From assembly GCF_037038585.1 (NCBI RefSeq), contig NC_092556.1:386619-450618 (forward strand): a stretch of DNA of 64,000 nucleotides, in the 5' to 3' direction. The stretch comes from Patagioenas fasciata. Taxonomy: Eukaryota. A model generated the notes under the pieces. That model ran no database searches. It was given only the letters and a program-made list of their open reading frames with translations, and had not been told where the DNA came from. Below are positions 7,791-64,000 of this stretch, in pieces; within the stretch, counting starts at the first letter, position 1, and every line of letters begins with the position of its first letter. The position numbers and the translations under genes are program-made.

Positions 7791-7804
7791 GTTTTGGGGT
7801 GCCC

Positions 7805-7909
7805 TCATTCTCCCTCTTTGTCCTCGCCATGCGTTATCACGTAGCAGATGTTCTTGTAATCCACGTTGCCGGCCACGTCGGGGGGAAACGCCGCCCACAT
7901 GTTCTTGAT
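7805..7909 (-). CDS. MYLPF: MYLPF exon 7 ([34 protein letters not shown], stop)
   Basis: Acceptor cccccccccag|ATCAAGAAC. The stop codon TGA is at 7805-7807 on the minus strand. Confidence 0.9.
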
Positions 7910-10900
7910 CTGGGGGGGGGGACACCCCAAAATTGGTCAGTGGGGGACCCCAAAATACAAGGGGGGGGGTGCAATGTAGCATGGGGGGGATTTGGGGGGG
8001 ATTTGGGGGGGATTGGGGGGGATTTGGGGGGATTAGGGGGGGATTTGGGGGGTCAGCAAAGGGGGTTTGGGGGGAGCAGTGAGGGGGTATAGGGGGGGTT
8101 TTGGGGTCTCTATGGGGGGGTTTGGGGTCCCCATGGGGGGTTGGGGTCCCCAAGGGGGGTTTGGGGTCCCAAGGGGGGGTCCCAAGGGGGTTTGGGGTCC
8201 CTATGGGCAGTTTGGGGTCCGCATGGGGGGTTTGGGGTCCTCATGGGGGGTTTGGGGTCCCAAGGGGGGGTCCCAAGGGGGTTTGGGGTCCCTATGGGCA
8301 GTTTGGGGTCCCAAGGGGGTTTGGGGTCCGCATGGGGGGTTGGGGTCCCCAAGGGGGTTTGGGGTCCCAAGGGGGGTCCCAAGGGGGTTTGGGGTCCTCA
8401 TGGGGGGTTTGGGGTCCCCATGGGGGTTTGGGGTCCCCAGGGGGTTTGGGGTCCCCAAGGGGGTTTGGGGTCCTCATGGGGGGTTTGGGGTCCCATGGGG
8501 GGTTTGGGGTCCCCATGGGGGGTTTGGGGTCCCAAGGGGGGTTTGGGGTCCCCAAGGGGGTTTTGGGGTCCCCATGGGGGTTTGGGGTCCCCAGGGGGTT
8601 TGGGGTCCCCATGGGGGTTTGGGGTCCCCAGGGGGTTTGGGGTCCCAAGGGGGGTTTGGGGTCCCAAGGGGGTTTTGGGGTCCCCAAGGGGGTTTTGGGG
8701 TCCCCATGGGGGTTTGGGGTCCCCAGGGGGTTTGGGGTCCCAAGGGGGTTTGGGGTCCTCATGGGGGTTTGGGGTCCCCAAGGGGGTTTTGGGGTCCCCA
8801 AGGGGGTTTTGGGGTCCCCATGGGGGTTTGGGGTCCCCAGGGGGTTTGGGGTCCCAAGGGGGTTTGGGGTCCCCATGGGGGTTTGGGGTCCCAAGGGGGT
8901 TTGGGGTCCCCATGGGGGGTTTGGGGTCCTCATGGGGGGTTTGGGGTCCTCATGGGGGTTTGGGGTCCCCAAGGGGGTTTGGGGTCCCAAGGGGGGTCCC
9001 AAGGGGGTTTGGGGTCCCCATGGGGGTTTGGGGTCCTCATTGGGGGTTTGGGGTCCCCATGGGGGGTTTGGGGTCCTCATGGGGGGTTTGGGGTCCCAAG
9101 GGGGTTTGGGGTCCCAAGGGGGTTTTGGGGTCCCCATGGGGGTTTGGGGTCCTCATTGGGGGTTTGGGGTCCCCATGGGGGGTTTGGGGTCCCCAAGGGG
9201 GTTTGGGGTCCCAAGGGGGTTTGGGGTCCCCAAGGGGAGTTTGGGGTCCCCATGGGGGGTTTGGGGTCCTCATTGGGGGTTTGGGGTCCCCAAGGGGAGT
9301 TTGGGGTCCCAAGGGGGGTTTGGGGTCCCAAGGGGGTTTGGGGTCCCAAGGGGGTTTTGGGGTCCCCATGGGGGTTTGGGGTCCTCATGGGGGGTTTGGG
9401 GTCCCAAGGGGGTTTGGGGTCCCAAGGGGGTTTTGGGGTCCCCATGGGGGGTTTGGGGTCCCCATGGGGGTTTGGGGTCCTCATGGGGGGTTTGGGGTCC
9501 CAAGGGGGTTTGGGGTCCCCATGGGGGTTTGGGGTCCCCATGGGGGGTTTGGGGTCCCATGGGGGTTTGGGGTCCTCATGGGGGGTTTGGGGTCCCAAGG
9601 GGGTTTGGGGTCCCCATGGGGGTTTTGGGGGGTTCTGGGGGTTTTGGGGGTGGTTTTGGGGGGTTTTGGGGGGTCCCGGGGGGGTTTGGGGCTGATTTTG
9701 GGGTGATTTGGGGGGTTTTGGGGCTCTCACCTCCTCGGGGGTGAAGCGGTCGCACTGGGTGGTCAGGAGCTCCTCAAGGCTGGGGGGGCACAGTGACCCC
9801 AATGTCCCCATTGACCCCCACTGGCCCCCATTGGCCCCCATTGGCCTCCATTGACCCCCACTGGCCCCCATTGGCCCCCGTTGGCCCCCCATTGTCCTCA
9901 TTGGCCCCCATTGGCCCCCATTGGCCCCCCATTATCCCCATTGTCACCCCATCGGTCCCATTGCCCCCCATTGTCCCCCCATTGGCCCCATTGGCCCCCA
10001 CTGGCCCCCATTGGCCCCCATTGGCCCCCATTGTCACCCATTGTCCCCATTGTCCTCATTGGCCCCCATTGGCCCCCACTGGCCCCCATTGGCCCCCGTT
10101 GGCCCCCATTGTCACCCATTATCCCCATTGGCCCCCCATTGGCCCCATTGGCCCCCACTGGCCTCCATTGACCCCCATTGGCCCCCATTGGCACCATTGT
10201 CACCCATTGGCCCCATTGTCACCCATTGTCCCCATTGGTCCCCATTGGCCCCATTGTCACCCATTGTCCCCATTGTCCCCCCATTGTCCCCCATTGGCCG
10301 CCATTGCCCCCCATTGTCCCCCCATTGCCCCCCATTGTCACCCCATTGGCCCCCATTGGCTCCCATTGACCCCCATTGGCCCCCATTGGCCCCCCATTGT
10401 CCTCACTGTCCCCCATTGTCCCCATTGTCCCCATATCCCCCAATGTCCCCATATCCCCCAACACCCCCATTGTCCCCCCATGTCCCCCATGTCCCCCATG
10501 TCCCCAATGTCCCCATATCCCCCAACACCCCCATTGTCCCCCCATGTCCCCAATGTCCCCAATGTCCCCATTCCCCCCAACACCCCCATTGTCCCCCCAT
10601 GTCCCCCATGTCCCCCATGTCCCCAATGTCCCCAATGTCCCCATATCCCCCAACACCCCCATTGTCCCCCAATGTCCCCCATGTCCCCAATGTCCCCAAT
10701 GTCCCCATATCCCCCAACACCCCCATTGTCCCCCCATGTCCCCCATGTCCCCCATGTCCCCAACGTCCCCACTCACAAGCTCTTCTTGATGGAGCCCTTC
10801 CCGTCGGGGTCCAGCACCTTGAACGCCCCCATGATCACGTCCTCGGGGTCCGCGCCTGCCCCACGGGGTCCCCAAGGTCAAGGTCACGGCCCCAATGTCC

Positions 10901-13900
10901 CCAATGTCCCCCCATGTCCCCCAATGTCCCCCCATATCCCCCAATGTCCCCCCATGTCCCCCAATGTCCCCCCATATCCCCCAATGTCCCCCCAATGTCC
11001 CCAATGTGCCCCCATGTCCCTCATTGTCCCCATATCCCCAAATGTGTCCCCATGTCCCCCCATATCCCCACATCCCCCAATGTCCCCATGTCCCCCAATA
11101 TCCCCCTGTCCCCATATGTCCCATTGTCCCCATATCCCCCAATGTCCCCATTTTCCCCTCCATGTCCCCCATATCCCCCAATGTCCCCATTGCCCCCAAT
11201 GTCCCCATTGTCCCCATAGTCCCCCCATATCCCCCCATGTGCCCCCATTTATCCCCCCATATCCCCCAATGTCCCCATGTCCCCCATTGTCCTCATTGCC
11301 CCCAATGTCCCCATTGCCCCCAATGTCCCCATTGTCCCCCTATGCCCCCATAACCCCCATTGCCCCCAATGTCCCATTGTCCCCATGTCCCCCAATGTCC
11401 CCATGTCCCCCCATTATCCCCATACCCCCCACATCCCCCATATCCCCCAATGTCCCCATATCCCCCCATGTCCCCCATTGCCCCCCAATGTCCCCACGTC
11501 CCCCCATTATCCCCATGTCCCCCAATGTCCCCATGTCCCCCAATGTCCCCATGTCCCCCCATTATCCCCATATCCCCCAATGTCCCCATGTCCCCCAATG
11601 TCCCCAGATCCCCCCATTATCCCCATATCCCCCAATGTCCCCATGTCCCCCCATTATCCCCATATCCCCCAATGTCCCCATTGTCCCCCAATGTCCCCAG
11701 ATCCCCCCATTATCCCCATATCCCCCAATGTCCCCATTGTCCCCAATGCCCCCATTGTCCCCCTATCCCCCCATGTCCCCCCATTATCCCCCTGTCCCCC
11801 AATGTCCCCCTGTCCCCCAATGTCCCCATGTCCCCCAATGTCCCCCAATGTCCCCCAACGTCCCCAACGTCCCCACCCTTGAGCTTCTCCCCGAACATGG
11901 TGAGGAACACGGTGAAGTTGATGGGGCCGCTGGCCTCTTTGATCATGGCGTCCAGCTCCTCGTTCTTCACGTTCAGCCGGCCTATCAGAGACAGGGGGCG
12001 GGGCTTAGCGGGACACGCCCACCCCCAAACCCCGCCCCCTAGGCAATAAACCCCGCCCCTTACCATTCGGATTCCACACCCCCCCCTTGGCTCTATAGGC
12101 AATGGAATGGCCCTGGAGGCCACGCCCCCATTCACAAGCCACGCCCCCCTTTTAAACCCCCATTCCCTCCATTGGGTACCAAGGCCACGCCCCCTTTGTG
12201 CAAACCACGCCCCCTTTCCCAACCCCTATTGGCCCTGAGGCCACGCCCCCATTCTAAAGCCACGCCCCCAATCTTTAACCCCGCCTCCTTCTCCATAAGG
12301 CGCTAAGCCCCGCCCACCTTGCATAAGCGACGCCCCCCCCATTCTACCCAATTGGCTCTTGAGGCCACGCCCACATTTCCTCAAGCCACGCCCACATTTC
12401 CTCAAGCCACGCCCCTTTTCTAGACTCCGCCCCCTTCTCTATGAGGCGCTAAGCCACGCCCCCCTTTTCAATCTTCCATTTAATCCATTGGTTCTGGAAG
12501 CCACGCCCCCCCTTCAATCTCCCATTTACTCTACTGGCTGTGGAGGCCACGCCCCCTTTGCATAAGCCACGCCCCCTTTCAATATCCCATTTAATCTATT
12601 GGCTCTGGAGGCCACGCCCCCCACAAGCCCCACCCCTGCAAGCCGCTAAGCTCCGCCCCTTTGCCGCAAGCCACGCCCCCCCCCTTCCACCCCCCCAATT
12701 TACTCTATTGGCTCTGGAGGCCACGCCCACATTGCTCAGGCCACGCCCCCTCGGCAAACCCCACCCCCCCATTCATCCCTATGGCCCCATTGACCCCTCC
12801 ACCCCCCACAAGGCCACACCCATGCTCACTGAGGCCACACCCTCCAAGCCACGCCCACCTCCCCAAGCCACGCCCACCTCCCCCAAGCCACGCCCCCTCA
12901 CCCATGGCGGCGAAGGTCTCGCGCAGATCATCCTTATCAATGATCCCGTCCCGGTTCTGATCGATCACCGTGAACGCCTGCAGGGGGCGCGGGGGAGCAT
13001 GGGCCGCAGGCCACGCCCCCCGCCCCAAGCCACGCCCCCCCGCCCCAAGCCACGCCCCCCACCCCCCCCCCAAGCCTTCAAGGAGACATTGGAGCCGGCA
13101 ACAGGTGCTGGAAAGGACCCAGGCGTCCGGGGAAAGGGACCCAGGCGGCCGGGGGTTGGACCAAATAAGGGACCCAGGCGTCCGGGTGACCCCACCCCCC
13201 CCAAAAAAGGGACCCTGGAGTTCGGGGGTTGAACCAAAAAAGGACCCAGGCGTCCGGGGGGGTCTGATCAAGGGACCCAGGCGTCCGGGGAAAGGGACCC
13301 AGGCGTCCGGGGTGACCCCACCCCCCCAAAAAAGGGACCCTGGAGTTCGGGGGTTGAACCAAAAAAGGACCCAGGCGTCCGGGGTGACCCCTAAAAAGGG
13401 ACCCAGGCGTCCGGGGTGACCCCACCCCCCAAAAAAGGGACCCTGGAGTTCGGGGTTGAACCAAAAAAGGACCCAGGCATCCGGGGTGACCCCTAAAAAG
13501 GGACCCAGGCGTCCGGGGGGATCTGCCCGAGGGACCCAGGCGTCCGGGGGGGTCTGCCCAAGGGACCCAGGCGTCCGGGGGGGTCTGATCAAGGGACCCA
13601 GGCGTCCGGGGGGGTCTGATCAAGGGACCCAGGCGTCCGGGCAAAGGGACCCAGGCATCCGGGGTGACCCCTAAAAAGGGACCCAGGCGTCCGGGGGGGG
13701 TCTGCCCAAGGGACCCAGGCGTCCGGGGGGGTCTGCCCGAGGGACCCAGGCGTCCGGGGGGGTCTGCCCGAGGGACCCAGGCGTCCGGGGGGGTCTGATC
13801 AAGGGACCCAGGCGTCCGGGCAAAGGGACCCAGGCATCCGGGGTGACCCCTAAAAAGGGACCCAGGCGTCCGGGGGGGGTCTGCCCAAGGGACCCAGGCG

Positions 13901-16900
13901 TCCGGGGGGGGGTCTGAAAAAGGGACCCAGGCGTCCGGGGGGGTCTGCCCGAGGGACCCAGGCGTCCGGGGGGGGTCTGAAAAAGGGACCCAGGCGTCCG
14001 GGGGGGTCTGCCCGAGGGACCCAGGCATCCGGGGTTGCCCCCCCATTCCCCCCAAAAGGGACCCAGGCGTCCGGGGGGGTCTGCCCGAGGGACCCAGGCG
14101 TCCGGGGGGGTCTGCCCGAGGGACCCAGGCGTCCGGGGGGGTCTGCCCGAGGGACCCAGGCGTCCGGGGGGGTCTGATCAAGGGACCCAGGCGTCCGGGC
14201 AAAGGGACCCAGGCATCCGGGGTGACCCCTAAAAAGGGACCCAGGCGTCCGGGGGGGTCTGCCCGAGGGACCCAGGCGTCCGGGGGGGTCTGATCAAGGG
14301 ACCCAGGCGTCCGGGCAAAGGGACCCAGGCATCCGGGGTGACCCCTAAAAAGGGACCCAGGCGTCCGGGGGGGTCTGCCCAAGGGACCCAGGCGTCCGGG
14401 GGGGTCTGCCCGAGGGACCCAGGCGTCCGGGCGCCCCCACCTCCTTGAACTCCTGGATCTGGGTCTGGTCGAACATGGAGAAAACGTTGGAGCTGCCCTC
14501 GGCCGCTCGGCGCTTCGCCTTCTTGGGGGCCTGCGCGCAGATGGGGGGCAGGATGGGGGGTGGGTGTGGGGCAGGATGGGGGGGGATGTGGGGCAGGATG
14601 TGGGGGGGATGTGGGGGGGATGTGGGGCGGGTGTGGGGGGGTGTGGGGGGGGTGTGGGGCAGGATGGGGGGGGATGTGGGGCAGGATGGGGGGGGGTGTG
14701 GGGCTGGGTGTGGGGGGGGTGTGGGGCAGGATGTGGGGCAGGATGGGGGGCAGGATGGGGGGGATGTGGGGCAGGATGTGGGGCGGGCGTGGGGTGGGTG
14801 TGGGGCAGGATGGGGGGCGGGTGTGGGGTACAAATGGGGCAGGATGTGGGGGGGATGTGGGGCAGGATGTGGGGCAGGATGGGGGGGGGATGTGGGGGGG
14901 ATGTGGGGGGGATGTGGGGCAGGATGGGGGGGGATGTGGGGGGGGATGTGGGGTACAAATGGGGTGGATGTGGGGCAGGATGGGGGGCGGGTGTGGGGCA
15001 GGATGGGGGGGGGATGTGGGGTGGGATGTGGGGGGGATGTGGGGCAGGATGGGGGGGGATGTGGGGTACAAATGGGGCAGGATGTGGGGGGGATGTGGGG
15101 CGGGTGTGGGGGGGATGTGGGGGGGATGTGGGGCAGGATGTGGGGGGGATGTGGGGCGGGTGTGGGGCGGGATGGGGGGGGATGTGGGGCGGGTGTGGGG
15201 CGGGTGTGGGGGGGATGTGGGGGGGATGTGGGGCAGGATGTGGGGGGGATGTGGGGCGGGTGTGGGGCGGGATGGGGGGGGATGTGGGGTACAAATGGGG
15301 CAGGATGTGGGGGGGATGTGGGGGGGATGTGGGGGGGATGTGGGGCGGGTGTGGGGCAGGATGTGGGGGGGATGTGGGGCAGGATGGGGGGCGGGTGTGG
15401 GGGGGATGTGGGGGGGATGTGGGGTGGGATGTGGGGCAGGATGTGGGGCAGGATGGGGGGCGGGTGTGGGGCAGGATGGGGTGGGGATGTGGGGTGGGAT
15501 GTGGGGGGGATGTGGGGGGGATGTGGGGCAGGATGGGGGGGGATGTGGGGGGGATGTGGGGGGGATGTGGGGCAGGATGGGGGGGGATGTGGGGTACAAA
15601 TGGGGCAGGATGTGGGGGGGATGTGGGGCGGGATTTGGGGGGAGATGTGGGGGGGATGTGGGGGGGATGTGGGGGGGATGTGGGGTACAAATAGGGTGGG
15701 ATTTGGGGTACAAATGGGGCAGGTGTGGGGGGGATGTGGGGCAGGATCTGGGGGGGATGTGGGGTGGGATTTGGGGTACAAATGGGGCGGATGTGGGGTG
15801 GATTGGGGGGGATGTGGGGCAGGGATGTGGGGCAGATGGGGAGCAGGGGGTCCCTGGGGGTCCCTATGGGGTCTGGGGGGGATCTGGGGGGGATCTGGGG
15901 GTCCCTATGGGGTCTGGGGGTCCCTATGGGGTTCCCTATGGGGTCTGGGGGTCCCTATGGGGTCTGGGGGTCCCTATGGGGTCTGGGGGGTCCCTGGGGG
16001 TCCCTATGGGGTCTGGGGGTCCCTGGGGGTCCCTATGGGGTCTGGGGGTCCCTATGGGGTCAGGGGGTCCCTGGGGGTCCCTATGGGGTCTGGGGGTCCC
16101 TATGGGGTCTGGGGGTCCCTGGGGGTCTGGGGGGGATGTGGGGGTCCCTATGGGGTCTGGGGGTCCCTGGGGGTCCCTATGGGGTCTGGGGGTCCCTGGG
16201 GGTCTGGGGGGGATGTGGGGGTCCCTATGGGGTCTGGGGGTCCCTGGGGGTCCCTATGGGGTCTGGGGGTCCCTATGGGGTCTGGGGGGGATGTGGGGGT
16301 CCCTATGGGGTCTGGGGGTCCCTGGGGGTCCCTATGGGGTCTGGGGGTCCCTATGGGGTCAGGGGGTCCCTGGGGGTCCCTATGGGGTCTGGGGGTCCCT
16401 ATGGGGTCTGGGGGTCCCTGGGGGTCTGGGGGGGATGTGGGGGTCCCTATGGGGTCTGGGGGTCCCTGGGGGTCCCTATGGGGTCTGGGGGTCCCTGGGG
16501 GTCTGGGGGGGATGTGGGGGTCCCTATGGGGTCTGGGGGTCCCTGGGGGTCCCTATGGGGTCTGGGGGTCCCTATGGGGTCTGGGGGGGATGTGGGGGTC
16601 CCTATGGGGTCTGGGGGTCCCTGGGGGTCCCTATGGGGTCTGGGGGTCCCTATGGGGTCTGGGGGGGATGTGGGGGTCCCTATGGGGTCTGGGGGTCCCT
16701 GGGGGTCCCTATGGGGTCAGGGGGTCCCTGGGGGTCCCTATGGGGTCTGGGGGTCCCTATGGGGTCTGGGGGTCCCTGGGGGTCCCTATGGGGTCTGGGG
16801 GGTCCCTATGGGGTTCCCTATGGGGTCTGGGGGTCCCTATGGGGTCAGGGGGTCCCTATGGGGTCTGGGGGTCCCTGGGGGTCCCTATGGGGTCAGGGGG

Positions 16901-18245: not shown

Positions 18246-20000
18246 GGGTCCCTCCCCGAATTCCTAAGAAGTTCGTCCCGAACGCCTGGGTCCCTCCCCC
18301 CCCCCCCCCCCGAATTCCTGGGGCACTGGGGCACTCCTGGGTCCCCCCCGAACTCCTGGGTCCCTGGGGCACTCCTGGGTCCCTCCCGAACTCCTGGGTC
18401 CCCCCGAACTCCTGGGTCCCTGGGGCACTCCTGGGTCCCTTGGGGTACTCCTGGGTCCCTTGGGGCACTCCTGGGTCCCTCCCTGAACTCCTGGGTCCCT
18501 CCCGAACTCCTGGGTCCCCCTGGACTCGTGGGTCCCTTGGGGCACTCCTGGGTCCCTGGGGCACTCCTGGGTCCCTGGGGCACTCCTGGGTCCCTCCGGA
18601 ACTCCTGGGTCCCTGCCGAACTCCTGGGTCCCTTGGGGCACTCCTGGGTCCCCCCCTGAATTCCTGGGTCCCCCCCCGAACTCCTGGGTCCCCCCTCCCC
18701 CCTCCCCGAACTCCTGGGTCCCCCCTCCCCCCTCCCCGAACTCCTGGGTCCCCTCCAAGTGGGGGAGGGGCGGGAGAAGGCGGCAGGTGCAAGGAGGGGG
18801 GAGGGGGGGGAAGAAGGGACCCAGGCGTCCGGGAGGGGACCCAGGAGTTCGGGGGGGAGGGGACCCAGGCGTCCGAGCGCTATTTTTACCCCTTTGTCCC
18901 GATAAGGGCACCCGGGGGGACCCAGGAGTGCGGGAGGGACCCAGGAGTGCCCCAGGAACCCAGGAGTGCCCCAAGGGACCCAGGAGTGCCCCAAGGGACC
19001 CAGGAGTTCAGGGGGGGACCCAGGAGTGCGGGAGGGACCCAGGAGTGCCCCAGGGACCCAGGAGTGCCCCAAGGGACCCAGGAGTTCAGGGGGGGACCCA
19101 GGAGTGCCCCAGGGACCCAGGAGTTCAGGGGGGGACCCAGGAGTGCGGGAGGGACCCAGGAGTTCGGGGAGGGACCCAGGAGTGCCCCAAGGGACCCAGG
19201 AGTTCGGGGAGGGACCCAGGAGTCCGGGAGGGACCCAGGAGGTCGGGGAGGGACCCAGGAGTGCCCCAAGGGACCCAGGAGTTCGGGAGGGGACCCAGGA
19301 GTCCGGGAGGGGACCCAGGAGTCCGGGAGGGACCCAGGAGTCCGGGAGGGACCCAGGAGTTCCGGGAAGGACCCAGGAGTTCGGGAGGGGACCCAGGAGT
19401 CCGGGAGGGGACCCAGGAGTCCGGGAGGGACCCAGGAGTGCCCCAAGGGACCCAGGAGTTCCGGGAAGGACCCAGGAGTTCGGGAGGGGACCCAGGAGTG
19501 CCCCAAGGGACCCAGGCGTTCGGGAGGGACCCAGGAGTTCAGGAAGGGACCCAGGAGTTCGGGGAAGGACCCAGGAGTGCCCCAAGGGACCCAGGAGTTC
19601 GGGAGGGGACCCAGGAGTTCGGGGGGGAAACCAGGGGTCTGCGAGGGACCCAGGAGTTCAGGAAGGGACCCAGAAGTTCAGAGGGACCCAGGAGTTCGGG
19701 GAGGGACCCAGGAGTGCCCCAGGGACCCAGGAGTTCGGGGGAGGGACCCAGGAGTCCGGGAGGGACCCAGGAGTTCAGGAAAGGACCCAGGAGTCCAGGA
19801 GGGGACCCAGGAGTGCCCCAAAGGACCCAGGAGTTCGGGAGGGGACCCAGGAGTTCGGGAGGGACCCAGGAGTTCGGGAAAGGACCCAGGAGTTCGGGAG
19901 GGGACCCAGGAGTGCCCCAAAGGACCCAGGAGTTCGGGAGGGGACCCAGGAGTTCGGGAGGGACCCAGGAGTTCGGGAAAGGACCCAGGAGTTCGGGAGG
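18230..20000. repeat. GGGACCCAGGAGTKCSGG family satellite. Plus orientation is GAACTCCTGGGTCCC / CACTCCTGGGTCCCTGGGG at 18230-18760. The reverse orientation is at 18800-20000
   Basis: Direct reading. The orientation switches near 18770. Confidence 0.9.
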
Positions 20001-21840: not shown

Positions 21841-21850
21841 GATTTTGGGG

Positions 21851-30480: not shown

Positions 30481-30499
30481 AGGGGCGGAATGGGGGGGT

Positions 30500-50039: not shown

Positions 50040-50088
50040 ATGGGGGGGAAGGGGGAGAACGTCCTGCTGTTCGCGCCCAACGTCATCG
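50040..50088 (+). CDS. CDIPT: CDIPT exon 1 (MGGKGENVLLFAPNVIG)
   Basis: ggggccATGG start, then ATCG|gtaacg. A GC-box and E-box promoter lies upstream. Confidence 0.85.
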
Positions 50089-56000: not shown

Positions 56001-57697
56001 GCTGGTTAAACTGGTTACAGACTGGTTACACTGGTTACAGGCTGGTTAAACTGGTTACAGACTGCTCAGACTGGTTACAGACCGGTTACACTGGTTACAG
56101 ACTGGTTACACTGGTTACACTGGTTACACTGGTTACACTGGTTACAGACTGGTCAGACTGGTTACAGACTGGTTAGACGACTGGTTACACTGGTTACAGA
56201 CTGGTTACAGACTGGTTACACTGGTTACAGACTGGTCAGACTGGTCAGACTGGTTACACTGGTTACAGACTGGTCAGACTGGTCAGACTGGTTACAGACT
56301 GGTTGCACTGGTTACACACTGGTTACACTGGTTACAGACTGGTTAGACTGGTCAGACTGGTCAGACTGGTTACACACTGGTTACACTGGTTACAGACTGG
56401 TCAGACTGGTTACACTGGTTACAGACTGGCTACACTGCGGAGAGACTGGTTATACTGGTTAGAGACTGGATATACCAGTTATGGACTGGTCAGACTGGTT
56501 ACAGACTGGTTAGACTGGAGAGAGACTGGTTAGAGACTGGGGAGAGACTGGTTAGACTGGTTAGAGACTGGGGAGAGACTGGTTAGACTGGTTAGAGACT
56601 GGATAGACCAGTTACAGACCGGTTAAACTGGTTACAGACTGGTTAGAGACTGGGGAGAGACTGGTTAGACTGGTTAGAGACTGGATATACCAGTTACGGA
56701 CTGGTTAGACTGGTTACAGACTGGTTAGACTGGAGAGAGACTGGTTAGAGACTGGATATACCAGTTACGGACTGGTTAGACTGGTTACAGACTGGTTAGA
56801 GACTGGATAGACCAGTTACAGACTGGTTAGACTGGTTAGAGAGACTGGTTATAGCCATTAGAGACTGGTTAGCCTGGTTATACCAGTTAGAGACCAGTTA
56901 GAGCCTCATTAGACTGGTTAGAGCCTCATTAGACTGGTTAGAGACTGGGGAAAGAGACCGGTTATGATACTGGTTATACTGGTTAGAGAGACTGGTTAGA
57001 CTGGTTAGCGAGATTGGTTAGACTGGGGAGACTGGTCAGACTGGGGAGTTACACTGGTTATACTGGGAACACTGGTTATACTGGGGGTCTGGTTATACTG
57101 GGGAGGTTGGTTATACTGGGAGACTGGGGGGAACTACGGGGAACTGGTTTATACTGGAGGGACTGGGAGGGATTGGGGAGCACTGGGATGAACTGGGAGG
57201 GGATTGGGAAGGACTGGGGGGGTCACTGGGATGAACTGGGGGTCACTGGTCGGTACTGGTCTGTACTGGTCCATACTGGTCTGGACTGGTCCGTACTGGT
57301 CCCAGGGGGCCCCGGGCTGTTCAGCCTCCTCCTCTGGGTCGGGACTGGGGGGCACTGGTCTGAACTGGTCCGTACTGGTCTGAACTGGTCCATACTGGTC
57401 CATACTGGTCTGAACTGGTCCGTACTGGTCTGAACTGGTCCGTACTGGTCTGAACTGGTCCGTACTGGTCCATACTGGTCTGAACTGGTCCATACTGGTC
57501 TGAACTGGTCCGTCCTGGTCCCAGTGCTCCCGGGGGGCCCCGGGCTGTTCCGCCTCCTCCTCTGGGTCGCGACCCCCATGGCCGCCCTCAAGTTCCTGCT
57601 GAACCTGCTGCAGCTGGGCGGAGCCGCCGCGCGATTGGCCGCCCTGGACGCCGCCGCCAGGCGATTGGACGGGGCGCCCCGCCCCAAAACCCAGTGA
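50040..57697 (+). CDS. CDIPT: CDP-diacylglycerol--inositol 3-phosphatidyltransferase (phosphatidylinositol synthase), complete CDS in 6 exons, 224 aa
   Basis: Plus-strand exons: 50040-50088, 51143-51277, 52507-52660, 53342-53423, 53999-54080, 57525-57697 (includes stop). Translation: MGGKGENVLLFAPNVIGYARVALAAASFWLMPSRPGPAAALYGASAALDAVDGAVARRLHQGTRFGAMLDMLTDRLSSMCLLVNLALLYPATAALFQLSMALDIASHWLHLHCTTLEGGASHKNVGGEGHWLLRLYYTHKPVLFVVCAGNEAFYCALYLLRFGDGPRGVLPGGPGLFRLLLWVATPMAALKFLLNLLQLGGAAARLAALDAAARRLDGAPRPKTQ*. It is collinear with my recall of human CDIPT (..FLFVPNLIGYARI...DAFDGHAARALNQGTRFGAMLDMLTDRCSTMCLLVNLALLYP...SHWLHLH...LRIYYTSRPALFTLCAGNELFYCLLYL..) and carries the CDP-alcohol phosphatidyltransferase D-G-x-x-A-R...G-x-x-x-D-x-x-x-D signature. 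All junctions are GT..AG. Confidence 0.9.
50090..50790 (+). repeat. 7-bp based satellite GACTGGGAGGGACTGGGGGGC (CDIPT intron 1)
   Basis: Direct reading. Confidence 0.85.
51143..51277 (+). CDS. CDIPT: CDIPT exon 2
   Basis: Acceptor cccccccccag|GCTACGCC and donor CACCAGG|gtgggcgg. Confidence 0.88.
51290..52170 (+). repeat. About 20 bp satellite GGTGTGGTTTAGGTGGGAGGG (CDIPT intron 2)
   Basis: Direct reading. Confidence 0.85.
52507..52660 (+). CDS. CDIPT: CDIPT exon 3
   Basis: Acceptor cgcccccccag|GGACCCG and donor GCACTG|gtgggcgg. Contains the GAMLDMLTDR active-site block. Confidence 0.9.
52690..53230 (+). repeat. About 30 bp satellite GGCGGAGCTAAAGGGGTGGGGATAAAGG (CDIPT intron 3)
   Basis: Direct reading. 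Confidence 0.85.
53342..53423 (+). CDS. CDIPT: CDIPT exon 4
   Basis: Acceptor cctcccccag|CACCACC and donor CACAAG|gtgggggag. Confidence 0.88.
53999..54080 (+). CDS. CDIPT: CDIPT exon 5
   Basis: Acceptor cgcccccag|CCGGTGCTG and donor CCCCGCG|gtgaggcg. Confidence 0.88.
54090..57060 (+). repeat. 3 kb satellite in CDIPT intron 5: 22-bp GACTGGTCAGACTGGGTACAGAC in about 60 copies (54090-55450), grading into ACTGGTTACAGACTGGTTAC variants (55450-57060)
   Basis: Direct reading. Confidence 0.9.
57525..57697 (+). CDS. CDIPT: CDIPT exon 6 (terminal; ..LWVATPMAALKFLLNLL.., stop TGA)
   Basis: Acceptor cgtcctggtcccag|TGCTCCC. Frame is continuous from exon 5. The stop is at 57695-57697. Confidence 0.82.
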
Positions 57698-57789
57698 CTC
57701 CGCCCCAGAACCCGCCCGGGACCCCCGCGAAATGTCCCCAAAACCGCCCCATAAACGGAGCAACCGCCCACCCCTGGAGGGGTTTCCTC

Positions 57790-59400
57790 ACCATTGACTC
57801 GTTAACGCCTTCGCCAATCAACGGGGGGTTAATTAGGGGCTAATTAAGAGTGGGGAGGGGTCTCCTGACCTTCTAGACCCCATAACTACCAACCCAACCC
57901 ATTGAGACCCAATGACCACCAACCCCATTGAGACCCAACCACCAACCCTATGTAGATGCAACTTCACCATTGACTCATTAAGCCTCTGGCCAATCAATGG
58001 GGGGTTAATTAGGGGCTAATTAAGAGTGGGGGAGGAGTCACCTGACCTTCTAGACCCCATAACTACCAACCCAACCCACTGAGACCCAATGACCACCAAC
58101 CCCATTGAGATGCAACCACCAACCCCTTGAGATGTTTCCTCACCATTGACTCATTAAGCCCTTGGCCAATCAACGGGGGGTTAATTAGGGGCTAATTAAG
58201 ACTGGGGGAGGAGTCACCTGACCTTCTAGACCCCATAACTACCAACCCCATAGAGACCCAATGACTACGAACCCATTGAGACTCAAGAACCATCAACCCC
58301 ATTGAGTTGTTTCTCCACCATTGACTCATTAAGCCCTTGGCCAATCAAAAGGTTAATTAATTATGGACTAATTAAGAGTGGGGAGGGGTCTCCTGACCTT
58401 CTAGACCCCGTAACTACCAACCCAACCCATTGAGACCCAATGACCACCAACCCCATTGAGATGCAACCACCAACCCCTTGAGATGTTTCCTCACCATTGA
58501 CTCATTAAGACCTTGGCCAATCAAAATGTTAATTAATAAGGGGTTAATTAAGAGTGGGGAGGGGCCTCCTGGCCTTCTAGACCCCATAACTACCAACCCC
58601 ATAGAGACCCAATGACCACCAACCCACTGAGACCCAATGACCGTGAACCCCATTGAGATGCAACCACCAACCCCTTGAGATGTTTCCTCACCATTGACTC
58701 ATTAAGCCCTTGGCCAATCAACGGGGGGTTAATTAGGGGCTAATTAAGACTGGGGGAGGAGTCATCTGACCTTCTAGACCCCATAACTACCAACCCCATA
58801 GAGACCCAATGACCATGAACCCATTGAGACCCAACGACCATCAACCCCATTGAGTTGTTTCTCCACCATTGACTCATTAAGCTCTTGGCCAATCAAAAGG
58901 TTAATTAATTATGGACTAATTAAGAGTGGGGAGGGGTCTCCTGACCTTCTAGACCCCATAACTACCAACCCAACCCACTGAGACCCAATGACCACCAACC
59001 CCATTGAGACCCAACCACCAACCCTATGTAGACGCAACTTCACCATTGACTCATTAAGCCTTTGCCAATGAATGGGGGGTTAATTAGGGGCTAATTAAGA
59101 GTGGGGAGGGGCCTCCTGGCCTTCTAGACCCCATAACTACCAACCCCATAGAGACCCAATGACCACCAACCCATTGAGACTCAAGAACCATCAACCCCAT
59201 TGAGATGTTTCCTCACCATTGACTCATTAAGCCCTTGGCCAATCAACGGGGGGTTAATTATGGACTAATTAAGAGTGGGGAGGGGTCTCCTGACCTTCTA
59301 GACCCCATAACTACCAACCCAACCCACTGAGACCCAATGACCGTGAACCCCATTGAGATGCAACCACCAACCCCTTGAGATGTTTCCTCACCATTGACTC
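57790..59400 (+). repeat. 177-bp (nucleosome-length) satellite in about 9 copies, containing GGCCAATCAA and GGGTTAATTAGGGGCTAATTAAG motifs, between the convergent 3' ends of CDIPT and MFAP4-like
   Basis: Monomer starts (CACCATTGACTCATTAAGCC) are near 57965, 58143, 58316, 58494, 58685, 58862, 59040, 59215 and 59390. Confidence 0.88.
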
Positions 59401-59472
59401 CTGAAGCCTGTGGCCAATTAACGAGCGGGTTTAATTGCACGCGCGGGGGCGGGGCGGGGCGGGGGCGGGGCC

Positions 59473-59720
59473 TCAGAGGCGCCGGATCTTCATCTCGCTC
59501 TTGCGCAGCGAGTAGTAGAAGCCCTTCCACTGGGCCCAGTTGATGCCGTTGGCGTAGGAGAGGTGGGCGCCCCCCAGGTAGAAGCCGTTGAGGTTGGAGA
59601 AGTGGCAGCTGCGGAACCACCAGGCGCCCGAGGAGAGGGCGGCGCAGTTCTGCACGTACAGGTCCTGGTCGCGGTCGAAGGTGGAGAACTTCTGCCCGTT
59701 GTGGTAGCTCAGGGAGTCCC
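59473..59720 (-). CDS. MFAP4: MFAP4-like last exon ([39 protein letters not shown]...EMKIRRL*)
   Basis: Acceptor caccccccag|GGGACTCC on the minus strand. The stop codon TGA is at 59473-59475. Confidence 0.88.
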
Positions 59721-62510
59721 CTGGGGGTGGGGGGGGTCGTTGGGGTGGGGTCCCCGTCCCCATGGTTGACATTGACCTGGGGTCCCCTCCATTGACCTGG
59801 GGTCCCCTCCATTGACCTGGGGTCCCCTCCATTGACCTGGGGTCCCATTCCCATGGTTGACGTTGACTTGATCTCCCTCCCATTGACCCCCATTGACCAC
59901 ATTGAACCCCATTGACCCCCATTGACCCCCATTGACTCCCATTGATCCCCATTGACTGCCATTGAACCCCATTGACCCCCATTGACCCCCATTGACGCCC
60001 ATTGACTCCCATTGACCGCCATTGACTCCCATTGACCCCCACTGATCCCCATTGACCCCCATTAACTCCCATTGACGCCCATTGATTCCCATTGATCCCC
60101 ATTGACCCCCATTGACTTCCATTGATTCCCATTGACCCCCATTGACCTCCATTGACTCCCATTGACCCCCATTGACCCCATTGATCCCCATTGACCCCCA
60201 TTGACTCCTGGTCGCGGTCGAAGGTGGAGAACTTCTGCCCGTTGTGGTAGCTCAGGGAGTCCCCTGGGGGTGGGGGGGTCGTTGGGGTGGGGTCCCCGTC
60301 CCCGTGATTGACGTTGACCTGGGGTCCCCTCCCCATGGTTGACATTGACCTGGGGTCCCCTCCATTGACCTGGGGTCCCCTCCCCATGGTTGACATTGAC
60401 CCAATGGCCCTCATGGTGGACGTTGACCTGGGGTCCCCTCCATTGACCTGGGGTCCCCTCCATTGACCTGGGGTCCCATTCCCATGGTTGACGTTGACTT
60501 GATCTCCCTCCCATTGACCACATTGAACCCCATTGACCCCCATTGATCCCCATTGACTCCCATTGATCCCCATTGACTGCCATTGAACCCCATTGACCCC
60601 CATTGACCCCTGTTGATCCCCATTGACTCCCATTGACTTCCATTGATTCTCATTGACTCCCATTGACCCCATTGACGCCCATTGACTCCCATTGACCGCC
60701 ATTGACCCCCATTGACTCCCATTGACCCCCATTGACTCCCATTGACCACCATTGACCCCCACTGACCCCCATTGACCCCCATTGACCCCCATTGACCCCC
60801 ATTGATCCCCATTGATCCCCATTGACCCCCATTGACTCCTGGTCGCGGTCGAAGGTGGAGAACTTCTGCCCGTTGTGGTAGCTCAGGGAGTCCCCTGGGG
60901 GTGGGGGGGTCGTTGGGGTGGGGTCCCCGTCCCCATGGTTGACATTGACCTGGGGTCCCCTCCATTGACCTGGGGTCCCCTCCATTGACCTGGGGTCCCC
61001 TCCATTGACTTCTTGTCCCCTCCCCATGGTTGACATTGACCTGGGGTCCCCTCCATTGACCTGGGGTCCCATTCCCATGGTTGACGTTGACTTGATCTCC
61101 CTCCCATTGACCACATTGAACCCCATTGACCCCCATTGACCACATTGAACCCCATTGACCCCCATTGACTCCCATTGACCCCCACTGACCCCCACTGACC
61201 CCCATTGATTCCTATTGACCCCCATTGACTCCCATTGACTTTCATTGATTCCCATTGACCCCCATTGACTCCCAGTGACCCCCAGTGACCCCCACTGACC
61301 CCCATTGACCCCCATTGACTCCCATTGACCCCCATTGACTCCCAGTGACCCCCAGTGACCCCCACTGACCCCCATTGACCCCCATTGACCCCCATTGACT
61401 CCCATTGACCCCCACTGACCCGCATTGACTCCCATTGACCCCCATTGACTCCCATTGACCCCCACTGACCCCCATTGACTCCCATTGACCCCCATTGACC
61501 CCATTGACCCCCACTGACCCCCACTGACCCCCATTGAACCCCATTGACTCCCATTGACCCCCATTGACCCCATTGACCCCCATTGACCCCCATTGATCCC
61601 CATTGACTCCCATTGACTCCCATTGACCCCCATTGACCCCGTTGACCCCCATTGACCCCATTGACCCCCATTGACTCCTGGTCGCGGTCGAAGGTGGAGA
61701 ACTTCTGCCCGTTGTGGTAGCTCAGGGAGTCCCCTGGGGGTGGGGGGGTCGTTGGGGTGGGGTCCCCGTCCCCGTGATTGACGTTGACCTGGGGTCCCCT
61801 CCATAGACCTGGGGTCCCCTCCATGGACCTGGGGTCCCATTCCCATGGTTGACGTTGACTTGATCTCCCTCCCATTGACCACATTGAACCCCATTGACCC
61901 CCATTGACCACATTGACTCCCATTGACCCCCATTGACTCCCATTGATCCCCATTGACTGCCATTGAACCCCATTGACCCCCATTGACCCCTGTTGATCCC
62001 CATTGACCCCCATTGACTTCCATTGATTCTCATTGACTCCCATTGACCCCCACTGACGCCCATTGACCCCCATTGACCCCAATTGACTCCCACTGACCCC
62101 CATTGACCCCCACTGACCCCCACTGATCCCCACTGACCCCCATTGACTCCCATTGACCCCCATTGACTCCGTTGACCCCCATTGACCCCCACTGATCCCC
62201 ATTGACCCCATTGACCCCCATTGACCCCCATTGATCCCCATTGACTCCCATTGACTCCGTTGCCCCCCACTGACCCCCACTGACCCCCATTGCCCCCCGT
62301 CGCCCCCCGTCGCCCCCCGCCCCTCACCGGCGCCGCCGTCCACGAAGCCGCCCACGTGCAGGGTGTACCCGTCCTCCTCGGCGCTCACGGCGTGGGGCGA
62401 CAGCGCGAAGCGGCCGTAGGTGGCGGCCGCCGAGTTGTTCTCGAAGTCCTCGAGCTCCACGCGCAGCTCGTAGCGGCCCTGCAGCGTCAGCAGGTGCAGC
62501 GCCTGCAGCC
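59473..62510 (-). CDS. MFAP4: MFAP4-like fibrinogen C-terminal domain protein, 3' terminal two coding exons only (partial at window end)
   Basis: Minus-strand exons 62328-62510 and 59473-59720. Translation: (G)[142 protein letters not shown]. It is nearly collinear with my recall of the human MFAP4 C-terminus (..[142 protein letters not shown]). Upstream exons must lie beyond 64000. Confidence 0.82.
59730..62310 (+). repeat. 12-bp satellite CCATTGACCCCC with a 550-840 bp higher-order structure carrying copies of the MFAP4-like last-exon 5' fragment (MFAP4-like intron)
   Basis: Direct reading. Confidence 0.9.
62328..62510 (-). CDS. MFAP4: MFAP4-like penultimate exon ([25 protein letters not shown]...[10 protein letters not shown])
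   Basis: Acceptor ccccacctgcag|GGCTGCAG and donor GGCGCCG|gtgaggggcg on the minus strand. 183 bp. Phase is consistent with the last exon. Confidence 0.82.
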
Positions 62511-62519
62511 CTGCAGGTG

Positions 62520-64000
62520 GGGTGATGTGGGGTGATGTGGGGTGATGTGGGGCAGATGTGGGGCGGGATGTGGGGTGATGTGGGGCAGATGTGGGGCGGG
62601 ATGTGGGGTGATGTGGGGCGGGATGTGGGGTGATGTGGGGCGGGATGTGGGGCAGCTCGTAGCGGCCCTGCAGCGTCAGCAGGTGCAGCGCCTGCAGCCC
62701 TGCAGGTGGGGCGATGTGGGGTGATGTGGGGTGATGTGGGGCAGGATGTGGGGCGGGATGTGGGGCAGATGTGGGGCGGGATGTGGGGCAGCTCGTAGCG
62801 GCCCTGCAGCGTCAGCAGGTGCAGCGCCTGCAGCCCTGCAGGTGGGGCGATGTGGGGTGATGTGGGGTGATGTGGGGTGATGTGGGGAGGGATGTGGGGC
62901 AGATGTGGGGCGGGATGTGGGGCAGCTCGTAGCGGCCCTGCAGCGTCAGCAGGTGCAGCGCCTGCAGCCCTGCGTGTGGGGTGATGTGGGGTGATGTGGG
63001 GTGATGTGGGGCAGATGTGGGGCAGATGTGGGGCGGGATGTGGGGCAGCTCGTAGCGGCCCTGCAGCGTCAGCAGGTGCAGCGCCTGCAGCCCTGCAGGT
63101 GGGGTGATGTGGGGTGATGTGGGGCAGATGTGGGGCGGGATGTGGGGCAGATGTGGGGTGATGTGGGGCAGATGTGGGGCAGGATGTGGGGCAGCTCGTA
63201 GCGGCCCTGCAGCGTCAGCAGGTGCAGCGCCTGTAGCCCTGGATGTGGGGTGATGTGGGGTGATGTGGGGCGGGATGTGGGGCAGCTCGTAGCGGCCCTG
63301 CAGCGTCAGCAGGTGCAGCACCTGCAGCCCTGCATGTGGGGTGATGTGGGGTGATGTGGGGTGATGTGGGGTGATGTGGGGCAGGATGTGGGGCGGGATG
63401 TGGGGCAGCTCGTAGCGGCCCTGCAGCGTCAGCAGGTGCAGCGCCTGCAGCCCTGCAGGTGGGGCGATGTGGGGTGATGTGGGGTGATGTGGGGCAGGAT
63501 GTGGGGCGGGATGTGGGGCAGATGTGGGGCGGGATGTGGGGCAGCTCGTAGCGGCCCTGCAGCGTCAGCAGGTGCAGCGCCTGCAGCCCTGCAGGTGGGG
63601 CGATGTGGGGTGATGTGGGGTGATGTGGGGTGATGTGGGGAGGGATGTGGGGCAGATGTGGGGCGGGATGTGGGGCAGCTCGTAGCGGCCCTGCAGCGTC
63701 AGCAGGTGCAGCGCCTGCAGCCCTGCGTGTGGGGTGATGTGGGGTGATGTGGGGTGATGTGGGGCAGATGTGGGGCAGATGTGGGGCGGGATGTGGGGCA
63801 GCTCGTAGCGGCCCTGCAGCGTCAGCAGGTGCAGCGCCTGCAGCCCTGCAGGTGGGGTGATGTGGGGTGATGTGGGGCAGATGTGGGGCGGGATGTGGGG
63901 CAGATGTGGGGTGATGTGGGGCAGATGTGGGGCAGGATGTGGGGCAGCTCGTAGCGGCCCTGCAGCGTCAGCAGGTGCAGCGCCTGTAGCCCTGGATGTG
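62520..64000 (+). repeat. About 120-150 bp tandem units in about 11 copies. Each is a copy of the MFAP4-like penultimate-exon acceptor plus the first about 50 nt of that exon, followed by GATGTGGGG satellite
   Basis: The unit GGGCAGCTCGTAGCGGCCCTGCAGCGTCAGCAGGTGCAGCGCCTGCAGCCCTGCAGGTGGGGTGATGTGGGG.. is repeated. The minus-strand ORF 62812-63321 reads [17 protein letters not shown] three times. Confidence 0.9.

Follow-up and report, generated by a model that had tools for sequence, protein, structure and literature searches.

The stretch analysed here (hereafter the window) comprises 64,000 nt of the band-tailed pigeon Patagioenas fasciata (assembly GCF_037038585.1, contig NC_092556.1, positions 386,619 to 450,618 of the forward strand) and carries five genes, namely MYLPF, PAGR1, a TAO2-type kinase gene (TAOK2L), CDIPT and an MFAP4-like gene (MFAP4L), set in DNA that is mostly tandem repeat. 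Exons were mapped using tblastn with reference proteins as leads, the junctions were refined to GT-AG and frame continuity, and gene identity was confirmed via Pfam and PDB; open reading frames (ORFs) and GT-AG introns were found in all five genes. A preliminary description of the sequence had named four of these genes, all of which were confirmed; the fifth, left unnamed there, is the MFAP4-like gene. The genes are as follows, in window coordinates.

7805-18164, minus strand: MYLPF, fast skeletal myosin regulatory light chain; coding exons 18162-18164 (probable ATG exon), 14441-14530, 12902-12977, 11877-11981, 10777-10855, 9731-9779 and 7805-7909
21851-28838, minus strand: PAGR1; exons 28333-28838, 23701-23789 and 21851-22011; Pfam PAXIP1_C, E=2e-20
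32941-44491, plus strand: TAOK2L; 11 mapped exons, 32941-33051, 33134-33205, 33295-33396, 34372-34417, 34493-34589, 36389-36502, 37711-37802, 40038-40131, 41093-41174, 43097-43249 and 44303-44491
50040-57697, plus strand: CDIPT; exons 50040-50088, 51143-51277, 52507-52660, 53342-53423, 53999-54080 and 57525-57697
59473-62510, minus strand: MFAP4L, fibrinogen-domain gene; represented by its last two exons (62328-62510 and 59473-59720), with those further upstream outside the window

The spliced MYLPF protein is 99% identical to chicken LC2f, contains Pfam EF-hand domains and has chicken skeletal myosin regulatory light chain as its best PDB match (2mys/1i84, E=7e-103), with GT-AG at all junctions. 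The site gcggccATG/gtgagg (the slash marks the junction) at 18164-18162 on the minus strand lies in a unique gap, is the sole ATG/GT site over 7.3 kb of sequence upstream of MYLPF exon 2, and probably marks exon 1; this implies a first intron at 14531-18161 (3.6 kb), 96.1% of which is assigned to tandem repeats by Tandem Repeats Finder (TRF). The PAGR1 model matches the NCBI PAGR1 protein of Patagioenas fasciata with 100% identity and 100% coverage, and is 61-70% identical to that of Columba livia. An origin from chicken, to which the MYLPF match had pointed, was rejected on these PAGR1 identities. TAOK2L shows a Pfam Pkinase domain (E=1e-59), matches TAO2 (1u5q, 458 bits) better than TAO3 (438 bits) in PDB, is 87% identical to the NCBI ‘TAO2’ of Caloenas and has GT-AG at all junctions; the model is partial, its 3' part lying beyond 44491. 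No match was obtained when the window was searched using tblastn with a TAOK2 alpha C-terminus under SEG filtering, no coiled-coil middle region of TAOK2 was recognisable in the window, and a P. fasciata TAO2 protein was absent among the homology matches listed for TAOK2L. An ORF at 46100-46900 on the plus strand resembles the mammalian TAOK2 alpha C-terminus by eye only. CDIPT has a complete ATG-to-stop ORF with a CDP-OH_P_transf domain (E=6e-15), and MFAP4L a Fibrinogen_C domain (E=3.5e-40) with a GT-AG junction. As for other genes, ORFs in the unique gaps of 1-12.3 kb (for the most part the flank at 1-7.8 kb), of ~30-33.6 kb and of 44-50 kb contain no Pfam domain, and no Rfam family matches the window.

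With TRF (settings 2 5 7 80 10 50 500; 472 overlapping rows, merged for coverage), tandem repeats were found to occupy 83.2% of positions 7805-64000, bearing out the earlier estimate of 80% or more for that part, and 83.7% of the whole window; the figure for positions 1-7804 is 87.4%, so the repeat architecture is already present to the left of 7805. A mononucleotide shuffle of the window gave 0% coverage. On the basis of the 29 coding exons and 24 introns mapped in the five genes, TRF arrays cover 92.7% of intronic sequence (36,074 nt), 11.3% of coding exons (3,521 nt) and 81.0% of the remainder (24,405 nt). Coverage reaches at least 80% in 19 of the 24 introns and at least 90% in 15, which agrees with the first impression that nearly every intron is filled with satellite. 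By gene, it amounts to 35-99.8% in the six MYLPF introns, 99.1% and 96.2% in those of PAGR1, and 72-98% in the GT-AG introns of CDIPT. Three introns fall below 50%: MYLPF 11982-12901 (920 nt, 35%), TAOK2L 33206-33294 (89 nt, 48%) and TAOK2L 34418-34492 (75 nt, 0%). Greedy selection of non-overlapping arrays in 7805-64000 yielded 62 of at least 100 bp and 37 of at least 300 bp, against which a previous count of about 45 is fair, and the basic repeat units span 9-351 bp rather than the 9-215 bp first given. The repeats are imperfect (67-98% match between copies by TRF), and no repeat of at least 300 bp at 98% identity or more was found in the window. The G+C content of the window is 62%, and GC skew ranges from -0.86 to +0.62 between successive 2-kb bins.

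The arrays come very close to the exons. Internal coding exons measure 46-189 nt, practically as first described (46-190 bp), and arrays start at a median of 8 nt after the donor (8 nt or less in 13 of 22 cases), in line with the early remark that several begin within 10 nt; on the acceptor side they stop a median distance of 25 nt short (paired Wilcoxon p=0.008 for the two sides). Little is left unique beside the exons beyond the donor consensus and the branch-point and polypyrimidine region. Two examples singled out in the preliminary description are real and needed correction in their details: the repeat at the TAOK2 exon 1 donor follows gtgagt by 6 nt in five copies, not four, and the array behind the exon 6 donor at 36502 does begin ~8 nt in, with a first degenerate copy, and has a period of 72, not 63. 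The repeats, including those that enter coding exons, are listed below; positions refer to the forward strand, and a strand is given for coding repeats.

1-7804: repeat-saturated flank 3' of MYLPF, including GGGACCCAGGAGTTCGGG copies at 456-1303 and 5750-7670
8095-9723: 19-mer GGGGGTTTGGGGTCCCCAT x82 (TRF) in the last MYLPF intron; single-locus family
9797-11874: 9-10-mers CCCCATTGKC / CCCCAATGTC on either side of MYLPF exon 10777-10855; the TRF array runs straight across the exon
13167-14432: 31/62-mer GGGACCCAGGCGTCCGGGGGGGTCTG (TRF) in a MYLPF intron; separate two-array family at the 14-mer level
14540-15835: 11/23-mer GGATGTGGGGG (TRF) in the probable MYLPF intron 1
15846-17760: 10/78-mer GGGGGTCCCT (TRF) in the probable MYLPF intron 1
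18316-20005: dispersed minisatellite copy GGGACCCAGGAGTYCGGG between MYLPF and PAGR1, clustering with 456-1303, 5750-7670 and 40146-41079
20343-21851: 21/189-mer AACCCATTTTTGGGGTCAAAT (TRF) 3' of PAGR1; 0.43 of 11-mers shared with the positionally equivalent C. livia array
21985-22350: 122-bp array with the 5' edge of PAGR1 exon 3 as its seed; three decoys, each an acceptor with 27 exon nt, at 22133, 22195 and 22317
22365-23471: 11-mer TTGGGGGAAAT x98 (TRF) in PAGR1 intron 2
23821-28324: 23-mer TCCCCCCCAAATCGCCCTCACAA x~150 and an 11-mer array, 4.5 kb of PAGR1 intron 1; 0.00 of 11-mers shared with C. livia
28548-28767, minus strand: in-frame 21-nt coding repeats in PAGR1 exon 1, APWDRKG/D x5, GNEGANC x3 and DKEGADW x2 (TRF period 21/42)
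28950-32829: intergenic arrays between the head-to-head PAGR1 and TAOK2L genes, a 21-mer, an 84-mer and 31/93/325-mers, around a unique segment at 29997-30481
33058-33112: 11-mer GCCGCCCCATA x5 filling the 82-nt TAOK2L intron 1 (TRF 100% match)
34595-36385: 144-mer CCCCATAGATCCCG array followed by 14-mer CYGCCCCACTGAYC / CCGCCCCACAGCTC array (TRF) in TAOK2L intron 5
36522-41080: 72-mer, 13-mer, 12-mer, 23/71-mer and 17-mer arrays and a dispersed-family copy (40146-41080) in TAOK2L introns 6-8, 95.8-98.3% TRF
41292-44305: 70/140-mer CCCCATTATCCCATTAATT and 9/78-mer CCCCATTG arrays in TAOK2L introns 9-10, 90.7% and 97.9% TRF
44398-44451, plus strand: in-frame 15-nt coding repeat DDGDG x3.6 in TAOK2L exon 11 (TRF 100% match), aligned to Caloenas TAO2
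45472-48763: 9-mer CCCCATTGA at 45472-46105 and AT-rich arrays at 47039-48763, in the interval separating CDIPT from the mapped TAOK2L exons, whose unique gaps lack Pfam domains
54105-57521: 9/20-mer CAGACTGGGTACAGACTGGT x136 and related ACTGGT units in CDIPT intron 5 (intron 97.8% TRF)
57760-59436: 176/351-bp array between CDIPT and MFAP4L (TRF 4.7 copies, 82% match)
59770-62334: three to four higher-order units of CCCATTGACC 10-mers in the last MFAP4L intron, with decoys of the last-exon edge (upper ends 60263, 60894 and 61733)
62517-63994: 123-bp array whose unit includes the acceptor along with the first 48-49 nt of MFAP4L exon 62328-62510; 11 decoys, at 62700-63992

The relationships between arrays were assessed by 12-16-mer containment, the level reported here being the 14-mer; BLASTn single-linkage clustering with 11-mer seeds was discarded, as 20 arrays became fused through G/C runs. 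Across the whole window, 73 arrays were grouped into 59 families (about 55 of them within 7805-64000), 52 of which occur at a single locus, so that the notion of private satellites stands for most families at this level. It does not extend to the GGGACCCAGGAGTTCGGG family, which is dispersed over intergenic and intronic sites (456-1303, 5750-7670, 18333-20000 and 40146-41079), nor to short motifs: CCCCAT occurs in the consensus units of 24 of the 59 families (after shuffling of the consensus, mean 4.6 and maximum 10) and CCCATT in 18 (mean 2.0, maximum 6). The same CCCCAT core was found in 10 of 31 arrays from C. livia and 11 of 27 from Caloenas, compared with 3 of 23 and 1 of 19 in two sparrows, whose arrays are dominated by a CCCAAA / CCAAAA core (CCCAAAA) in its place. 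The seemingly private satellite families thus carry a lineage-specific common core. The GGGACCCAGGCGTCCGGGGGGGTCTG unit looks by eye like the dispersed GGGACCCAGGAGTTCGGG family, and 14-mer clustering keeps it apart. MYLPF exon 10777-10855 is flanked on both sides by arrays with 25-36% of their 12-mers in common, with related 9-10-mers (CCCCATTG / CCCCAATG; also CCCCATTGGC / CCCCATTGTC against CCCCAATGTC), an exception to the rule of ‘one intron, one private satellite’. In 58% of array base pairs the basic unit measures 9-12 or 19-23 bp, lengths close to 10.5 and 21 bp. Strand asymmetry is pronounced, with an absolute GC skew of at least 0.3 in 52 of the 73 arrays and a median of 0.44 per array. 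Canonical G-quadruplex (G4) motifs cover 17% of the plus and 21% of the minus strand; they are in excess on the coding strand in PAGR1, CDIPT and MFAP4L, slightly so in MYLPF, and the bias is reversed in TAOK2L. The AT-rich arrays TTTGAAAATTTGG and AATTTTGGGGCCAAAAATCCCC at 47039-48763 break the GC-rich landscape, with a GC content of ~0.53 there.

The origin of some units can be read directly from the exons beside them. In a BLASTn screen of each exon against the window, with a cut-off of 42.1 bits taken from Hron et al. 2026 (Genome Biol Evol 18:evag038; PMC12954441), the 5' edges of four exons were found to be copied into the adjacent upstream intron, 1-11 times each, all copies being proximal and acceptor-side.

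MFAP4L exon 62328-62510, first 48-49 nt: 11 copies, one in every unit of the 123-bp array (BLASTn 86-92 bits, 98-100% identity)
MFAP4L last exon, first 58 nt: three copies, at 60263, 60894 and 61733 (BLASTn 108 bits, 100% identity)
PAGR1 exon 3, first 27 nt: three copies, acceptor retained
CDIPT exon 6, first 49 nt: one copy, 57297-57345, partial and degenerate, without AG

The pyrimidine tract and AG are intact in all copies except that of CDIPT; the PAGR1 decoys (BLASTn 43.6-45.4 bits) keep the acceptor ttgcag/GCCCGGG. That seeding was local in four introns at the least is proved by these units, which stem from exon edges and acceptors. In the last MFAP4L intron, the true exon edge and its three decoys are identical over ~40 nt of intron and 58-59 nt of exon, bar a 1-nt indel in a C run; the higher-order units are 82-87% identical overall, and divergence between copies is limited to their slippage-prone 10-mer and 20-mer parts. 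The copies break at a CCAGG microhomology between exon GACCAGGA and satellite unit CCCCAGGTCAATGG (59640-61893, minus strand), which fits template switching or unequal exchange at microhomology. Exon-specific gene conversion was considered for the 100% identity of the MFAP4L copies and set aside as unnecessary, the 40 nt of flanking non-exonic sequence being equally conserved apart from that indel. The early statement that exons remain unique is only partly correct, as it gives way at these four copied edges and at the two exons with in-frame repeats. In PAGR1, the coding repeats are part of the annotated P. fasciata protein and are missing from C. livia, and Caloenas has an in-frame AAADY x3-4 at that place.

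The consequences for splicing were examined with approximate vertebrate donor and acceptor position weight matrices, using the 25th percentile of 23 true sites as a stringent cut-off. Sense introns contain 214 acceptor-like and 33 donor-like sites, and a single acceptor has a donor 40-300 nt downstream. Acceptor and donor decoys hardly ever pair, because each array is strand-asymmetric, C-rich arrays offering acceptors only and G-rich arrays donors only. The 14-mer array of TAOK2L intron 5 (35676-36385), which merges into the true acceptor, had been credited with hundreds of acceptor-like sites; it contains tens of ccccacag sites, and matrix scoring of the whole intron gave 49 acceptor-like and 0 donor-like sites. 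Under exon definition, ordinary arrays are thus a smaller splicing problem than first supposed, and the real puzzle is posed by the exon-edge copies, which place identical acceptors and authentic exon sequence upstream of the true site. With up to 11 decoys upstream of one true site, MFAP4L and PAGR1 exon 3 offer natural tests of how splice sites are chosen. Sense and antisense intron strands gave like counts at three thresholds, and selection against cryptic exons is accordingly not claimed.

A comparison with other birds and with reptiles, proposed when the architecture was first described, was made for the coding-sequence (CDS) span of MYLPF.

Zonotrichia (sparrow): 6,832 bp, 75% TRF
Ammospiza (sparrow): 7,598 bp, 73% TRF
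Dermochelys (turtle): 2,424 bp, 11.5% TRF
Pantherophis (snake): 8,549 bp, 0% TRF

The arrays are largely absent from the turtle and snake orthologues, and in birds they are built from lineage-specific units. Sparrow MYLPF units are AT-rich and unrelated to those of the pigeon, and the sparrow loci contain extra copies of the 3' part of exon 3.

Among pigeons, orthologous PAGR1 loci were compared in two independent assemblies of Columba livia and in Caloenas nicobarica, where PAGR1 stands head-to-head with the kinase gene as in the window. The chromosome records carrying these loci measure 489,914 bp in C. livia and 774,814 bp in Caloenas, and the P. fasciata PAGR1 contig is 2.1 Mb. Array turnover is uneven among the pigeon genera, since the PAGR1 intron arrays have been replaced and others retained. 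Four PAGR1 intron arrays have 0-4% of 11-mers in common between Patagioenas and Columba; the TTGGGGGAAAT array of intron 2 is regarded as replaced on account of a sharing of only 0-0.04, and intron 1, 4.5 kb in the window, measures ~1.7 kb in C. livia, where it is made of other units (a 2.6-fold length change). Collinear arrays with 26-64% of 11-mers shared between the two genera were found in TAOK2L introns 3 and 5 and in one of two intron 6 arrays (among those TAOK2L intron arrays with a readable Columba counterpart), in the intergenic DNA and 3' of PAGR1; the sharing is 0.46-0.50 for both arrays of TAOK2L intron 5. The PAGR1-TAOK2L intergenic arrays keep their position and sequence in all three genera, with 0.23-0.64 of 11-mers shared with the equivalently placed arrays of C. 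livia and Caloenas, whereas the array 3' of PAGR1 is retained in Patagioenas and Columba only. The dispersed-family array at 18316-20005 has 0.5-0.6 of its 11-mers in common with C. livia and Caloenas arrays. The acceptor edge of PAGR1 exon 3 is stuttered in both Patagioenas and Columba: with the true exon counted, one C. livia assembly has 7 copies and the other 6 (fetched loci 14296-14874 and 15487-16066), each decoy there combines an acceptor with a donor-like GACAAG/GTGCAG, and one of the NCBI gene models of C. livia (P0122) takes one decoy copy of exon 3 as coding sequence.

The architecture corresponds closely to that reported for chicken dot chromosomes by Hron et al. (PMC12954441), where introns are filled by local imperfect tandem blocks, a condition termed ‘sequence stuttering’. 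In that study, the copying of exon-edge fragments with splice sites affected 115 genes (236 introns), nanopore sequencing showed length polymorphism in 86% of dot-chromosome introns, arrays were verified in raw nanopore reads, and similar expansions with different sequences were seen in other birds; MFAP4, which lies on chicken dot chromosome 38 together with KAT8, SLC5A2 and ALDOA, is listed in its supplement among the exon-stuttering genes. The window shares the local, imperfect intron arrays isolated between exons, the involvement of intergenic DNA, the GC-rich and G4-prone composition, the species-specific units, the copying of exon-edge fragments with their splice sites into the adjacent intron and, apart from the in-frame repeats of PAGR1 exon 1 and TAOK2L exon 11, the intact coding regions (ORFs, domains and GT-AG sites). 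It differs from the chicken case in belonging to Columbiformes, in having in-frame repeats in two coding exons, where Hron et al. describe coding regions as intact and blocks as not crossing exons, in having related 9-10-mers on both sides of one exon, and in that several arrays persist across pigeon genera, whereas that paper emphasises independent expansion. In the zebra finch, tandem repeats make up more than 70% of dot-chromosome introns (92.7% of introns here), with units in multiples of 10-11 bp (bioRxiv 10.1101/2025.10.17.683159; 10.1101/2025.10.14.682431). The window resembles it in its repeat-majority introns, 10-30 bp units, strong G4 and direct-repeat content and mostly coding-strand intron G4s, the last also reported there (bioRxiv 10.1101/2025.10.17.683159). 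The band-tailed pigeon assembly belongs to the six-species survey of these papers (bioRxiv 10.1101/2025.10.14.682431; 10.1101/2025.10.17.683159), which provide chromosome-scale statistics, without single loci, exon-edge copies or array orthology. The core motif further separates the lineages, being CCCCAT in the pigeons and CCCAAAA in the sparrows examined.

Together, it is very likely that the window is P. fasciata dot-microchromosome euchromatin showing sequence stuttering, in which local seeds have been tandemly amplified until they fill nearly all non-essential DNA. Its position appears consistent with a dot chromosome: the likeness to bird dot-chromosome regions, suspected from the outset, is upheld by the match to published dot-chromosome euchromatin and by orthologous loci on chromosome records of 0.49 and 0.77 Mb. 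The seeds are intron fragments, splice-acceptor regions and exon edges, and their repeated tandem amplification would stem from replication slippage or template switching combined with gene conversion or unequal exchange, in a small chromosome that recombines strongly and whose DNA is rich in G/C runs and prone to G4 formation. Expansions that harm exons or core splice signals would be removed by purifying selection, so that within coding exons only in-frame units in disordered segments would survive. Splicing would proceed by exon definition, the short exons offering canonical sites and the arrays acceptor-like or donor-like decoys, hardly ever both. As such, the window is a further example of a phenomenon already published and not a new phenomenon.

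Several points weigh against this reading. The type of the window's chromosome is judged from orthologous loci, and the P. fasciata arrays, their lengths and their predicted splicing are taken here from the assembled sequence. The dispersed GGGACCCAGGAGTTCGGG family, the shared CCCCAT core, the arrays persisting across pigeon genera and the related 9-10-mers around one MYLPF exon depart from a picture of purely local events. Decoy exons are as rare on the antisense as on the sense strand (1 sense vs 5 antisense, 23 vs 25 and 111 vs 122 at the three thresholds). Hron et al. (PMC12954441) themselves call the mechanism speculation, whether replication stress at G4-prone DNA or meiotic gene conversion, and dropouts of PacBio HiFi reads in dot-chromosome euchromatin correlate with minisatellite density (bioRxiv 10.1101/2025.10.14.682431).

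A different emphasis would be that the arrays reflect a sequence-specific process acting on a lineage core (CCCCAT in pigeons, CCCAAAA in sparrows) with ~10.5-bp phasing, a process reaching into coding exons (the PAGR1 and TAO2 peptide repeats), with a subset of arrays retained for a function such as recombination or chromatin phasing at the PAGR1-TAOK2 bidirectional promoter; this is unlikely. Somewhat more doubtful is an invasion, in which a few dispersed minisatellites or mobile elements, or just one, would have entered and later diverged at their sites, instead of de novo local amplification. The four or more sites of the GGGACCCAGGAGTTCGGG family, which is also present in other pigeons, would accord with it, as would the excess of CCCCAT in 24 of 59 families over the 4.6 expected, the 20 arrays joined by loose BLAST linkage and the reference to ‘a specific minisatellite sequence’ in the zebra finch work, but the exon-edge- and acceptor-derived units show seeding on the spot, 52 of the 59 families lack substantial 14-mer overlap with any other, the loose cluster is driven by G/C runs, and the Pfam and Rfam scans of the window gave no mobile-element signal.

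That the arrays are functional satellites, selected for instance for acting as recombination hotspots, in nucleosome phasing, as G4 or promoter elements or in modulating splicing, rather than arising as neutral by-products, is improbable. The arrays between PAGR1 and TAOK2L, part of the TAOK2L intron arrays and the one 3' of PAGR1 do keep their position and sequence among pigeon genera; unit lengths group around 10.5 and 21 bp, the coding strand is favoured by G4 motifs in four of the five genes as in zebra finch introns, and many families have the lineage-specific core motif in common. Set against this, the PAGR1 intron arrays were wholly replaced between Patagioenas and Columba with the 2.6-fold change in intron length, sparrow units are AT-rich and unrelated, the G4 strand bias of TAOK2L is opposite, 86% of chicken dot-chromosome introns are length-polymorphic, and persistence at the genus level can be neutral. 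Mis-assembly of noisy long reads in GC-rich, low-coverage DNA, by which arrays or their lengths would have been made or inflated, would draw on the HiFi dropouts that track minisatellite density. It is nonetheless highly improbable: the two independent C. livia assemblies are collinear, with 0.73-0.99 of 11-mers in common and array lengths within 0-3%, an agreement that argues against assembly artefacts, a like architecture is found in Caloenas and two sparrows, the arrays are imperfect and without long near-identical duplications, exons, frames and splice sites are intact between them, and the chicken arrays were verified in raw nanopore reads. A decaying pseudogene region, with dead genes and unconstrained repeat build-up, is scarcely credible in spite of the missing coiled-coil part of TAOK2L and the standing of dot chromosomes as gene-loss hotspots (PMC12954441), given a MYLPF protein 99% identical to that of chicken, an NCBI-annotated PAGR1 with exactly the protein predicted here, uninterrupted ORFs over 29 exons, GT-AG at all 24 introns, significant domain matches and arrays that respect splice signals.

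Other repeat-rich systems can be compared with the window. Classical centromeric or pericentromeric satellite forms long homogeneous stretches of one unit over tens of kb to Mb in gene-poor heterochromatin, unlike the window, where the largest block is 4.5 kb and 59 families occur in 64 kb around five intact genes. Transposable elements and other dispersed repeats, expected at many loci and with protein or RNA signatures encoded by the element, offer no parallel either, as only one family is dispersed within the window, ORFs outside the genes have no Pfam domains and Rfam gave no matches. Human minisatellites, or variable number tandem repeats, have 10-100 bp units and are GC-rich, strand-asymmetric and G4-prone, features shared by the arrays described here; their length is thought to change via gene conversion or unequal exchange near recombination hotspots. 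They are isolated loci making up ~1% or less of introns, whereas in the window such repeats are the default state of non-coding DNA and abut splice sites. The Y-linked fertility genes of Drosophila, the subject of work by Fingerhut and Yamashita in 2022, reportedly have gigantic satellite-filled introns that are transcribed and spliced out, and are likewise coding genes whose introns are largely tandem satellite. There, megabase simple satellites occupy a few genes in the heterochromatin of a non-recombining chromosome; here, arrays of 0.1-4.5 kb with dozens of units affect every gene, in euchromatin dense with genes and on a type of chromosome reported to recombine at a high rate. In the extremely GC-rich gene cluster of the gerbil, as far as can be taken from its citation in PMC12954441, runaway GC was linked to biased gene conversion (Hargreaves et al. 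2017), and Hron et al. (PMC12954441) mention a stuttering-like intron pattern in this cluster (data not shown); the gerbil cluster is mammalian and a localised hotspot, unlike the window.

Stuttering is among the oddest genome architectures of vertebrates, in which unstable minisatellite makes up more than 90% of the introns of housekeeping and muscle genes, and it explains why many bird genes were long thought to be “missing”. The value of the present locus is incremental, because the general phenomenon is already published; it provides a well-resolved example from a third avian order and adds in-frame coding stutters, satellites on both sides of an exon, decoy acceptors identical to true sites, a lineage core, a ~10.5-bp unit spectrum and uneven retention of arrays. 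The coding repeats indicate that this instability can write in-frame repeats into proteins. With regard to gene order, MYLPF adjoins a CDP-OH_P_transf (CDIPT-type) gene in Zonotrichia (fetched locus 15492-16885), and in the window MYLPF and CDIPT, on opposite strands, are separated by ~32 kb that contain PAGR1 and the TAO2-type kinase gene. This is a hint that linkage of 16p11.2-type genes has been conserved, with rearrangements, on this avian microchromosome.

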